This document shows, one piece after another, positions 21,855 to 33,175 of a stretch of 64,000 nucleotides of DNA (position 1 is its first letter; each line of letters starts with the position of its first letter). Below the pieces are notes generated by a model. It was not told the DNA's origin, did no database searches, and saw only the letters and a list, made by a program, of their open reading frames with translations. Position numbers and translations under genes: made by a program. Source of the DNA: an uncultured Pseudomonadota bacterium (GTDB lineage: Bacteria; Babelota; Babeliae; Babelales; RVW-14); assembly GCA_964388745.1 (NCBI GenBank), contig CAYMBP010000001.1:28244-92243 (forward strand). Direction: 5' to 3'.

Positions 21855-22655
21855 CTACTGTTTATCTTTTTTATTAATAATTTTAAGATTCCCAACTGTT
21901 TGGAGGTTGTCTTTTTGAGTTGATTTATCGTGCTGATCAATTCCTTTTTTTTCAAAAATTATGTCTCCATTGCTTACCCAGGCAAGAAGGTTTTTCAGTA
22001 GATTATGGATGTGCGGGGTGAGAGAGGGATCTTCATCATTAATAATTTCTTCACTTATTGCTGCAAGATTTTTGACATAGTTAAGACAAATAAGTCTTTC
22101 GCGTTCATCTTGAGACTGTGCAGAAATAGTAAAGTGTCCACTTTGTTTGTTGTTATATCGTTTATATTCATTAACACTCTGAGTGTTTAGTGTTGATTGA
22201 GTGATGTTTTGTACCATTTCCCCGGTTATTTCAATAATTTTAACATATCGTGAATCAAGAGTTTTTTGAGGTGCTTCCGCTTCAGAGCTTTCAGCTGCAA
22301 GTTCTATGCCTGTTTCAATAAGGTTAAGAATTGCTGCTTGTGTTGCAATTTTATCATGATTACTTTTGGCATGAAGGAGTGAGCTAACGTGAATAAATGC
22401 CTTTGCAACAGCATTAAGTATTTTTTTTGCAGAAAGCTTGCCTCTTGTTATAGGGGGAAAAGAGTTATTGTTCTTACAAGGACATGCTGAACAACAATTG
22501 CAGCTGCTGCCACAGGCACACTCAGCGGTTGTGTTATTGCAGCAAGATGGAATACTTGTTGATTCAAAATTTTGTTTTTTGGGGGGGTGAGGAGATGATG
22601 CAAGAGGTGTTGTGGTGAGTGCTATCATTACAAGGCTAACTATCAATTTATTCAT
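21855..22655 (-). CDS. secreted protein with a metallothionein-like cysteine cluster
   Basis: RBS aaaaaGGAGtcttctctATG. Signal-like 'MNKLIVSLVMIALTTTPLASS'. 'SCCNNTTAECACGSSCNCCSACPC' has 9 Cys within 23 residues (nt 22476-22544). The rest looks helical and is unrecognised. Confidence 0.55.
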   Translation of the reverse strand: MNKLIVSLVMIALTTTPLASSPHPPKKQNFESTSIPSCCNNTTAECACGSSCNCCSACPCKNNNSFPPITRGKLSAKKILNAVAKAFIHVSSLLHAKSNHDKIATQAAILNLIETGIELAAESSEAEAPQKTLDSRYVKIIEITGEMVQNITQSTLNTQSVNEYKRYNNKQSGHFTISAQSQDERERLICLNYVKNLAAISEEIINDEDPSLTPHIHNLLKNLLAWVSNGDIIFEKKGIDQHDKSTQKDNLQTVGNLKIINKKDKQ

Positions 22656-23043
22656 AGAGAAGACTCCTTTTTTCGTAAAAACTTATTTTTACAATCTATT
22701 AATCGTTGATGAGCTTATAGCCTTGTCAGGCTAACTACTCTTTTTCATTTGGCGCGAGCAATAGCTTTGTGCTTTATCTGCAGAGCTTTTTTATATTATG
22801 TATTGCGGGGGGTAATTATTGGATTATGCTTCACGTATATACTCTCTGATTGCTCTGATATTACCAATCCTTTTCTCTCTTGAGAGTCTAATATGAGAAG
22901 TAAAAAAAGTTAATAATTAAAATCTATATTTTTGTGATACCTCTGTGAGTAATTCCTTTATCAGGTATTCTCGATGTTAGACTAAAAGCAAAAAGTATTC
23001 ATCAAGTTGAAAATGACTTCGTAGGGTTAAGACCGTGCAGAGG

Positions 23044-23811
23044 TTATATCTTTTGGGCAACTGTTAAAATTCTTTCAGATTCTTTTTCACTCAAAGCGCT
23101 TCTTTTTATATTAGTCTGTTCAACAATTTTAAATCCGCTAGATTCAAGAAGTTTGGTCAATTGGACACGGTTGTATACCTGAAGTGTTTGACAAGCGTAT
23201 GAAGTGGTCGGCTCTTCACCCTTTTTTTCTTCATAATAAATATCATGAGAAGCAAGAACACCTTCTTGATTGATAGTGCTATACTGAATTTCTCGTCTGA
23301 TTTTATCTTCAGATTTTTTGAGCCAGTCAATGGTGAGCTTGGTAATATTGTCTTTGTGCAGAAGATAGTCCAGATTAAAAATATCAAAAATATATAGTCC
23401 ATCAGCTTTGAGATTTTTTCCAATGTTGTGGATTGTTTTCTTAAAATCTTGCTTGGTGAGATGGCCAATTGAATTAAAGATAGTGATGACCGCATCAAAC
23501 TCACCGGCTTGAGTGGTGCGCATGTCACCCTCATGAAAAGAAAGATTAAGAGATGCTTGTTCTGCTTTTGCTTGAGCTTGTGCGATCATTGTTGGGCTGA
23601 TGTCATAACCGACAACGTCAAAACCTTTTGAAGAGAGGTAAAAAACTTGAGATCCTGTTCCACTAGTGAAATCTAGCACTGTCTTGACTTTGTGCTCAGA
23701 GAGTATTTGCTCGATGAGTTGATTCGTCTTTTCTGAGTTTTTTTCGTTAAAAAGATCATAGGTTGAAGCTTCTTTGTCATAGTGTGTATGCAAGGCGCTT
23801 GTGTGTTTCAT
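23044..23811 (-). CDS. class I SAM-dependent methyltransferase
   Basis: Motif I 'VLDFTSGTGSQVFYLSSKGFDVVGYDISPTMI'. Post-I acidic residue. 'FDAVITIFNSIGHL'. Substrate unknown. Confidence 0.8.
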   Translation of the reverse strand: MKHTSALHTHYDKEASTYDLFNEKNSEKTNQLIEQILSEHKVKTVLDFTSGTGSQVFYLSSKGFDVVGYDISPTMIAQAQAKAEQASLNLSFHEGDMRTTQAGEFDAVITIFNSIGHLTKQDFKKTIHNIGKNLKADGLYIFDIFNLDYLLHKDNITKLTIDWLKKSEDKIRREIQYSTINQEGVLASHDIYYEEKKGEEPTTSYACQTLQVYNRVQLTKLLESSGFKIVEQTNIKRSALSEKESERILTVAQKI

Positions 23812-32797: not shown

Positions 32798-33082
32798 ATT
32801 ATATGTTTTCTATCGCACGAAGGGGCTTTATAAAAATTATATTACTTTACAAGTAGGTAGAAGTTTTCATATTTTACAAAGCTGTTCTTTGAACAGAGTA
32901 AATTGTATCACGTAAAACAGGAATGTTAAATTTTTAGAGGATGTAACTAGAGACTTTGCTGAAAAATGTAAAATTTTTAATGATAAGAGATTAGAAAAGG
33001 GCCTTTAGCTCATTGTGAAATAAATCAAAATAAAGAAAAAAATTGCTTTGTGATTAAAAACTAAACTAGGCATATTTAATGC

Positions 33083-33175
33083 TGGTGGAGAGGGTGGGAT
33101 TCGAACCCACGATTCCGGGATTACCAGAATAACCGCTTTCGAGGCGGTCGCTTTCGACCACTCAGCCACCTCTCC
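33083..33175 (-). tRNA. tRNA-Ser (anticodon CGA), class II with long variable arm, encoded CCA
   Basis: Minus strand reads GGAGAGG-TG-GCTGAGTGGTCGAAAGC-G-ACCGC-CTCGAAA-GCGGT-[21-nt variable arm]-GTGGG-TTCGAAT-CCCAC-CCTCTCC-A-CCA. The 7-bp acceptor stem, anticodon stem and T-loop all pair. Confidence 0.9.

Follow-up and report, generated by a model that had tools for sequence, protein, structure and literature searches.

The closest described counterparts of the DNA analysed here are integrative islands associated with tRNA genes (the pathogenicity-island type), DAB (DabAB/MpsAB) pumps, polymorphic Tox-EndoU systems and aminoglycoside nucleotidyltransferases of the AadA/ANT(3'')-ANT(9) type. 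The DAB family is horizontally transferred and has been found in heterotrophic pathogens, e.g. Legionella pneumophila (Desmarais et al., bioRxiv 10.1101/476713). Intracellular bacteria were reported to possess many toxins, which are used on their hosts, and hardly any immunity proteins (Zhang et al. 2012, PMC3482391). Relatives of these systems were found in an ~11-kb block of genes (21855-33175, the bordering tRNA gene included) in a 64,000-nt stretch of DNA from an uncultured bacterium (assembly GCA_964388745.1, contig CAYMBP010000001.1, positions 28,244 to 92,243), referred to below as the window. The block lies between psd and the 3' end of a tRNA-Ser(CGA) gene, and the initial annotation took it for an old, decaying genomic island.

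The block resembles the tRNA-associated islands in its position at a tRNA 3' end, its unrelated accessory genes, its pseudogenes and the presence of at least one horizontally acquired module. It differs from them in having no integrase, no att repeat and no compositional deviation; in addition, one of its "cargo" genes is syntenic with psd, and the synteny gap at the block passes the tRNA and includes core genes. The block is probably a mosaic of pieces of separate origin lying in a rearranged region of a Dependentiae chromosome, and not one element integrated into tRNA-Ser.

Boundaries and composition of the block

The left flank of the block is formed by psd (20768-21727, PF02666). On the right, the tRNA-Ser(CGA) gene (33083-33175, minus strand) was recognised by both ARAGORN and Rfam (64.8 bits) and has its 3' end directed at the block and its toxin gene, as described earlier. 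The ten successive elements listed between the two lie on the minus strand, as does every sizeable open reading frame (ORF) there, and the Cys-cluster secreted protein, the methyltransferase, dabA, dabB and the EndoU-like toxin had been named correctly. The ANT and GNAT genes are truly decayed, with lesions and partial profile matches. In a megablast comparison with plasmids the tRNA was the sole part matched.

Named homologs of psd belong to Babeliales/Dependentiae, and the order M16 peptidase, DUF374, priA, Ddl-Ddl fusion, rpe and psd is common to the distant Dependentiae loci L005, L007/L008 and L009, which points to a Dependentiae (TM6/Babeliales-like) chromosome as the host of the block. 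The best psd match to a relative is ~50% identical, and identities of 49-61% with the nearest Dependentiae relative were obtained for the core proteins psd, rpe, ddl, priA, DUF374 and M16. A contig search with GlmU gave matches from distant, unrelated phyla only.

In the distant relatives the psd loci have no block genes beside psd, and the block proteins, the Cys-cluster protein aside, match nothing there. Upstream of psd in L007 lie genes for G6PD, 6PGD, a cyclase, cysS, thioredoxin, PBP2 and UPF0102, which correspond to 44.9-53.0 kb of the window with order and relative orientation kept. Compared with L007 the window thus contains ~22 kb of extra DNA, at 22.7-44.9 kb, and this comprises the block together with tRNA-Ser, glmU, an sbcD-like gene, atpA/H/F and recD2. 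Since colinearity returns at G6PD (44.9 kb), 12 kb past tRNA-Ser, and the extra DNA includes core genes, the region is a rearrangement zone rather than an insertion between psd and the tRNA. The synteny comparison proposed together with the island hypothesis therefore had a mixed outcome: distant relatives do lack the block genes beside psd, but in L007 colinearity does not return at the tRNA. The boundaries originally drawn from psd to the tRNA were wrong at both ends, as the first gene is conserved with psd and on the right colinearity resumes at 44.9 kb and not at the tRNA.

Within the extra DNA, the ATP synthase genes for subunits b/b', delta and alpha (36205-39650) end after atpA and are followed by a 146-aa orphan, with no atpG, atpD or atpC. 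The atp operon looks divided, in keeping with a rearrangement breakpoint within 22.7-44.9 kb.

The psd-proximal gene of the block (21855-22655, minus strand) encodes a secreted Cys-cluster protein of 266 amino acids (aa) that belongs to no Pfam or NCBIfam family. In L005 the position directly upstream of psd is taken by a 306-aa gene, the product of which likewise combines a signal peptide with a CDNCDCAC cluster and is 30% identical to the window protein across 165 aa (E 2e-17). The L005 gene in turn is similar to a 229-aa gene that adjoins psd in L007 (E 7e-7), so that the window gene is linked to L007 via L005. As a positional ortholog beside psd in two other Dependentiae genomes the Cys-cluster gene is therefore not island cargo, and it would have been inherited vertically along with psd. 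The 388-bp non-coding gap that follows (22656-23043), with stops in all frames and an empty six-frame Pfam search, is likely to be the left edge of the lineage-specific material.

The earlier statement that no integrase or transposase is present was upheld by Pfam searches of the ~50 ORFs of the window. Six-frame translations of the gaps 32790-33090 and 22640-23060 gave no Pfam match, hence no mobility gene, and neither a phage nor a defence signal was returned by PHROGs and PADLOC. When the 3' half of tRNA-Ser was searched for as a 25-mer with up to 3 mismatches, it matched the tRNA itself only, and no second copy of any tRNA-Ser word of 12 nt or longer was found anywhere in the window, in agreement with the initial annotation, which had noticed no obvious direct repeat of the tRNA 3' end by eye.

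The sole repeat that reaches into the tRNA end is inverted, perfect and 16 nt long (CCACCAGCATTAAATA); its copies lie at 24236-24251 (plus strand) and 33073-33088 (minus strand). The latter covers the last 6 nt of tRNA-Ser and 10 nt downstream, and the former lies inside the ORF 23830-24795, where it codes for FNAGG. Two copies occurred in 0 of 100 shuffled sequences. Because the repeat is inverted, it is not of the att type; it could be the endpoint of an old inversion or a product of chance.

Lower GC in parts of the block had been noted by eye. A low value was indeed found at 29.5-30.5 kb (0.302), but a lower one still (0.295) occurs outside the block, at 39.5-40.5 kb, and the block as a whole (0.357) is similar to the rest of the window (0.368), the gap being less than half of the standard deviation of 1-kb windows (~0.024). 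The GC content at third codon positions of the block genes overlaps that of other window genes. Tetranucleotide distances calculated in 3-kb windows gave z values from -0.6 to +1.2 in the block except at 30-33 kb, where z reached 2.4, a value equalled by 7-12 kb, so the block remains within the spread of the window. Two observations had been named in advance as speaking jointly against an island, namely an ordinary composition and a gene order conserved in all relatives; the first was made, the second was not.

These results bear directly on the proposal of a single island that entered the chromosome at the 3' end of tRNA-Ser(CGA) and whose integrase and att repeat have meanwhile disappeared by decay. 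The block is accessory and heterogeneous, contains two pseudogenes among its mixed cargo, abuts a tRNA 3' end, carries at least one foreign module (dabB-dabA) and is missing next to psd in distant relatives, all of which such an island would explain. This origin is nevertheless improbable, given that neither an integrase, nor a direct repeat of at least 12 nt, nor a compositional deviation was detected, that the psd-proximal gene is syntenic in relatives, that the gap relative to L007 reaches 12 kb past the tRNA and takes in core genes, and that the modules of the block are found separately elsewhere. In other genomes the dab cassette and the toxin-partner pair are each met alone in unrelated contexts, and they were therefore acquired separately rather than as co-travelling cargo.

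The dabB-dabA cassette

The central part of the block is occupied by two intact genes on the minus strand. dabA (25349-27586) encodes the 745-aa beta-carbonic-anhydrase-like subunit of a putative DAB pump (PF10070, E 2e-223), and dabB (27598-28935) a 445-aa NuoL/Mrp-like membrane subunit (Proton_antipo_M, E 2e-39). dabB is located upstream of dabA with an 11-nt gap between them. The cassette agrees with described DAB pumps in the adjacency of dabB and dabA, the full-length PF10070 match, the four Zn-site residues and the NuoL-like DabB. It differs in the length of DabB (445 aa, 443 in the closest relatives, versus 551 aa in H. neapolitanus DabB2), in the absence of the divergent LysR gene seen in its closest relatives and in its obligate intracellular Dependentiae host. 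The putative Zn-site residues C273, D275, H443 and C458 do not vary among 28 aligned sequences, and their spacing of 2, 170 and 15 compares with 2, 173 and 15 for C351/D353/H524/C539 (Desmarais et al.), a correspondence drawn from pattern and spacing and not from an alignment with H. neapolitanus DabA2 itself.

The best DabA matches are 57-66% identical, and the named ones come from metagenome-assembled genomes (MAGs) of Rickettsiaceae, Chlamydiota, Legionellales, Waddliaceae and Simkaniaceae and from several Bacteroidota; the match to a Rickettsiaceae MAG DabA is 66% identical over its full length. The three closest loci, L010-L012, consist of a divergent LysR gene, dabB (443 aa) and dabA (744-746 aa). 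With these the window cassette is colinear at a DNA identity of 68-69%, its DabB is 70-73% identical over the full 443 aa, and its DabA is 66% identical. In a neighbour-joining tree the window DabA was placed among Rickettsiaceae, Chlamydiota and Legionellales sequences. dabB-dabA is foreign to the chromosome, its cross-phylum identity of 66-73% exceeding the 49-61% that core genes share with the nearest Dependentiae. The GC content of the cassette is 0.384 in the window and 0.43-0.455 in relatives; having converged on the host, it indicates that the transfer is old.

The same comparison makes it highly improbable that the whole block is ancestral and was passed on vertically, with relatives losing or moving its genes and no horizontal transfer at all. 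Such a history would agree with a composition indistinguishable from that of the rest of the window, with the retention of the Cys-cluster gene beside psd and with the fluid gene order of the phylum. It is contradicted by DabA and DabB, which resemble proteins from MAGs of other phyla (66-73%) more than any core protein resembles its counterpart in the nearest relative of the same phylum (49-61%), and the neighbour-joining tree of DabA already leans to nesting in the clades of other phyla. The ANT(3'')/ANT(9)-type genes, moreover, are classic mobile resistance genes, and the toxin-partner module is accompanied in relatives by arrays of orphan cassettes, as is typical of polymorphic toxin loci that undergo recombination.

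To see what the cassette travels with, its surroundings were compared with those of 83 other dab loci. dabB adjoins dabA in 73 of them. A transfer en bloc with the ANT and GNAT genes was rejected, since homologs of ANT, GNAT, the methyltransferase or the toxin are carried by 0 of the 83. A general linkage of dab genes to tRNAs was rejected likewise: a tRNA lies within 3 kb in just 7 of the 83 loci, which is no enrichment and adds to the evidence against a single island at tRNA-Ser. With no shared neighbours and no enrichment of tRNAs, the cassette thus arrived alone, and the ANT and GNAT remnants are unrelated wreckage at its edges. The possibility that the GNAT remnant is a relic of the DUF6671 or 232-aa genes found 3' of dabA in L010 and L012 was also discarded, as tblastn gave no match. 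No remnant of a LysR gene was found by tblastn upstream of the window dabB.

Two observations on tRNAs near dab genes fit the single-island proposal. In L011, from a Chlamydiota MAG, a tRNA-Ser(CGA) gene upstream of the cassette points towards it with its 3' end, just as the one in the window does, and 8 of the 19 tRNAs on dab loci L010-L097 are tRNA-Ser with various anticodons (flanks of up to 8 kb per side; the loci may share phylogeny). A perfect 16-nt hairpin with a 26-nt loop (28760-28775/28802-28817) is situated within the 5' part of dabB.

In the mosaic interpretation, the cassette would have been acquired long ago from a gene pool common to amoeba-associated Rickettsiales, Chlamydiota and Legionellales and to Bacteroidota, without the usual divergent LysR regulator, and would now lie between the ANT and GNAT wrecks. 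Its products would form an intact two-gene inorganic-carbon pump in which DabA converts CO2 to bicarbonate by hydration and DabB provides the coupling to a cation gradient. In an intracellular parasite such a pump might supply bicarbonate for carboxylases or help with pH control.

The putative EndoU toxin and its partner

The gene next to the tRNA (30284-32797, minus strand) encodes a predicted secreted EndoU-type RNase toxin of 837 aa. PF14436 (EndoU_bacteria) matches residues 722-835, i.e. the extreme C-terminus, with 34.7 bits (cutoff 25.3). The protein begins with a hydrophobic signal (residues 5-24), followed by a Glu/Lys-rich coiled coil (~88-160), a near-orphan centre of ~500 aa and the EndoU region (~690-837). 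An exhaustive phmmer search with residues 161-837 against 1.84e9 representatives returned one other full-length homolog (P0247, 46% identical); 102 further matches cover the C-terminal 130-170 residues only, nearly always at the C-termini of the matched proteins. Outside the EndoU domain no Pfam, NCBIfam, PHROG or PADLOC match was found, and no domain of type V, VI or VII secretion systems (T5SS, T6SS, T7SS) or RHS.

The last 188 aa of the toxin were modelled with AlphaFold at a pLDDT of 90, and the top PDB matches of the model in Foldseek were XendoU, Nsp15 and EndoU (probability 0.99, with modest E and TM values), so an EndoU fold is predicted for the C-terminus. In a 45-sequence alignment the His of an "HI" motif is the majority residue, G79, H81 and D83 (GFHYD) and F123-F124-P125 (K-S-F-F-P) are invariant or nearly so, and a C-terminal T-x-F/Y-P is conserved; residues are numbered by the 188-aa fragment, whose H81 is His730 of the toxin. 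The catalytic His, His, Ser/Thr pattern is thus present, and RNase activity is predicted. At L013 2860-2945, the only full-length toxin homolog contains an in-frame TAG where the signal of the window toxin aligns, the start having been called after the TAG; this could reflect a sequencing error, loss of the signal or a pseudogene.

The toxin gene is followed after 75 nt by a gene for a 253-aa protein (29447-30208, minus strand), the candidate immunity protein, which consists of two modules of ~120 aa and represents a family for which Pfam has no model. The protein gave no Pfam, NCBIfam, PADLOC, PHROG or PDB sequence match, and a single-sequence structure model was unusable (pLDDT 42). Known immunity families (Imm*, SUKH, SuFu) were not matched in Pfam at E <=0.01 by any of the three proteins compared, from the window (253 aa), L016 (238 aa) and L013 (669 aa), with the exception of a sub-threshold HEPN_Toprim_N match. 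The window copy has neither a hydrophobic segment nor an export signal.

Members of the partner family lie beside EndoU genes in 4 of 6 loci: the window, L013, L016/L017 and L098/L099. In L013 the toxin homolog P0247 is followed after 4 nt by a 669-aa gene containing tandem copies of the partner (E 2e-31 and 3e-23). L016/L017 (partner homology E 3e-30), at a contig end and from the same samples as the nearest psd relative, shows a partner tail, then an orphan EndoU tip with a partial partner domain and then a full partner. The middle element, P0250 (127-1230), is one ORF comprising EndoU (residues 17-152) and one partner module (198-292), being either the relic of a toxin-immunity fusion or a product of assembly at a repeat. 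In L098/L099 a 256-aa family member (hidden Markov model E 2e-32) precedes a 350-aa EndoU protein. The remaining loci, L014 and L015, encode short signal-peptide EndoU proteins without a partner.

The arrangement in the window is similar to that of polymorphic Tox-EndoU systems (PMC3482391; e.g. the CdiA-CT/CdiI EndoU pairs) in that the EndoU domain forms the C-terminus of a large exported protein and a small gene lies directly downstream, and relatives possess arrays of orphan tips and immunity genes or tandem immunity copies. It differs in that the first ~690 aa of the toxin contain no known trafficking domain and have one homolog in 1.84e9 sequences, that the partner matches no Pfam immunity family, including SUKH, SuFu and Imm28 reported with EndoU, and that the host phylum is intracellular, where immunity genes were reported to be rare.

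It is tentatively suggested, at rather less than even odds, that the pair belongs to a new Sec-dependent polymorphic toxin system of Dependentiae, in which EndoU is carried on a near-orphan region of ~690 aa and is accompanied by a new modular immunity family (~120 aa x 2) that forms arrays in relatives. In the favoured mosaic interpretation as such, the 837-aa protein would be a Sec-exported, polymorphic-toxin-like RNase with an EndoU tip, and the 253-aa cytoplasmic protein its putative cognate neutraliser.

Somewhat unlikely, though to be considered, is that the EndoU protein is a host-directed effector cutting amoebal RNA and that the 253-aa protein is its chaperone or co-factor and not an immunity protein; this alternative concerns the toxin module only. 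P0248 and P0249, the two closest short EndoU homologs examined that are without the partner family, are signal-peptide proteins, one of them encoded beside an ankyrin-repeat gene, the partner homolog in L098 has a hydrophobic N-terminus, and the reported use of toxins against hosts by intracellular bacteria with hardly any immunity proteins (PMC3482391) would fit an effector. A chaperone or co-factor is harder to reconcile with the tight linkage of the partner to EndoU genes in 4 of the 6 loci examined, with the lack of an export signal in the window copy and with the array of immunity gene, orphan EndoU tip and immunity gene in L016 and the tandem copies in L013, which are hallmarks of toxin-immunity systems.

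Several points weigh against the interpretation of the block as a mosaic with a toxin-immunity pair. No close relative is present in the collections searched (best psd 50%), and the block may be a very old island with eroded ends. The taxon labels of the DabA matches come from MAG annotations, most of these matches being unnamed. Most loci of the partner family derive from one sample series (SRR334654xx) and are perhaps not independent, and the putative immunity function of the 253-aa protein is deduced from conserved adjacency.

Remaining features and biological meaning

Both sides of the dab cassette are bordered by decayed genes on the minus strand. The ANT(9)/ANT(3'') aminoglycoside nucleotidyltransferase pseudogene (28936-29472; NCBIfam ANT_9) lies between dabB and the partner gene. 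Its ORF 29128-29472 ends at a stop that replaces a conserved Trp, with more stops beyond, and once this in-frame stop is taken as Trp the match is extended and the E value falls from 1e-19 to 2e-33. The match covers profile positions 2-117 of 249 and reaches 115 bits against a cutoff of 340. The remnant is truncated at its 3' end exactly at the dabB start, so that there is room for ~157 codons where ~250 are needed. Its N-terminal nucleotidyltransferase domain is clearly homologous to that of AadA/ANT(3'')-ANT(9) enzymes (E 2e-33 after stop repair); unlike these, the window copy is decayed, the conserved Trp being replaced by a nonsense codon, with further stops, and profile positions 118-249 being absent.

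The GNAT pseudogene (24796-25348), of the Acetyltransf_3, RimJ/RimL-like type, matches PF13302 with E 8e-6 and 27 bits (cutoff 25.4). Its ATG at 25348 abuts the dabA stop and is followed by a frameshift after ~3 codons. A frame of 88-114 codons matches positions 1-64 of 138 of the profile only; stops follow and the C-terminal half is unrecognisable.

Between the GNAT remnant and the non-coding gap beside the Cys-cluster gene lie two further minus-strand genes, which would be lineage-specific. The first in window coordinates encodes a class I S-adenosylmethionine-dependent methyltransferase of 255 aa (23044-23811; Methyltransf_25, E 1e-18), which matches PDB 1wzn (E 4e-15) and has top NCBIfam matches far under the cutoffs. 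The second encodes an orphan protein of 321 aa (23830-24795), presumably secreted, with a hydrophobic window at residues 18-36 near its N-terminus. The label "beta-helix" initially given to the latter could not be verified, as no Pfam, NCBIfam, PHROG or PDB sequence match was obtained.

Upstream of the toxin gene, the best match of the region to a sigma-70-like promoter (TTAACA-16-TACAAT with an extended TG) is found at 32902-32929 on the minus strand. It is a candidate based on consensus, the number of such sites not being above shuffled expectation.

Elsewhere in the window, a protein similar to the chlamydial histone H1-like Hc2 (PF07382, 61.5 bits) is encoded at 9533-10066, in DNA with an AT skew of -0.33 to -0.41 that is the strongest tetranucleotide outlier of the window. 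A 499-aa ankyrin-repeat protein (1442-2941) is of a type typical of host-interacting proteins in amoeba-associated bacteria. The tandem Ddl-Ddl fusion (17847-20066, 739 aa) comprises two complete D-Ala-D-Ala ligase units and is shared by every Dependentiae locus examined. Between priA and ddl the gene content varies: in the window (15481-17701) there are genes for a 416-aa protein with a weak, sub-cutoff RING-finger match (PF24921) and a 308-aa orphan, in L005 (8348-9954) two different orphans, and in L008 (14432-17569) a 1045-aa ORF that is missing from the otherwise identical L007.

Regarded as an island, the block is ordinary, and it illustrates that, when a genome is deep-branching and heavily rearranged, adjacency to a tRNA and mixed cargo do not suffice for the diagnosis of an integrative island. 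The intact DAB pump, in turn, is a specific example of the exchange of genes between bacteria associated with amoebae (Rickettsiales, Chlamydiota and Legionellales; 66-73% identity), one that extends to Dependentiae, and it points to a need for bicarbonate in these parasites.

The piece of the block most worth following up is the toxin-partner pair. The conserved partner family of the EndoU toxin, absent from Pfam, appears to be new, judging from the sequences compared. As immunity genes were reported to be nearly absent in intracellular bacteria (PMC3482391), the pair could be used to test for competition within the host, and if the putative toxin-immunity system is real, obligately intracellular Dependentiae would compete with their kin inside amoebal hosts.

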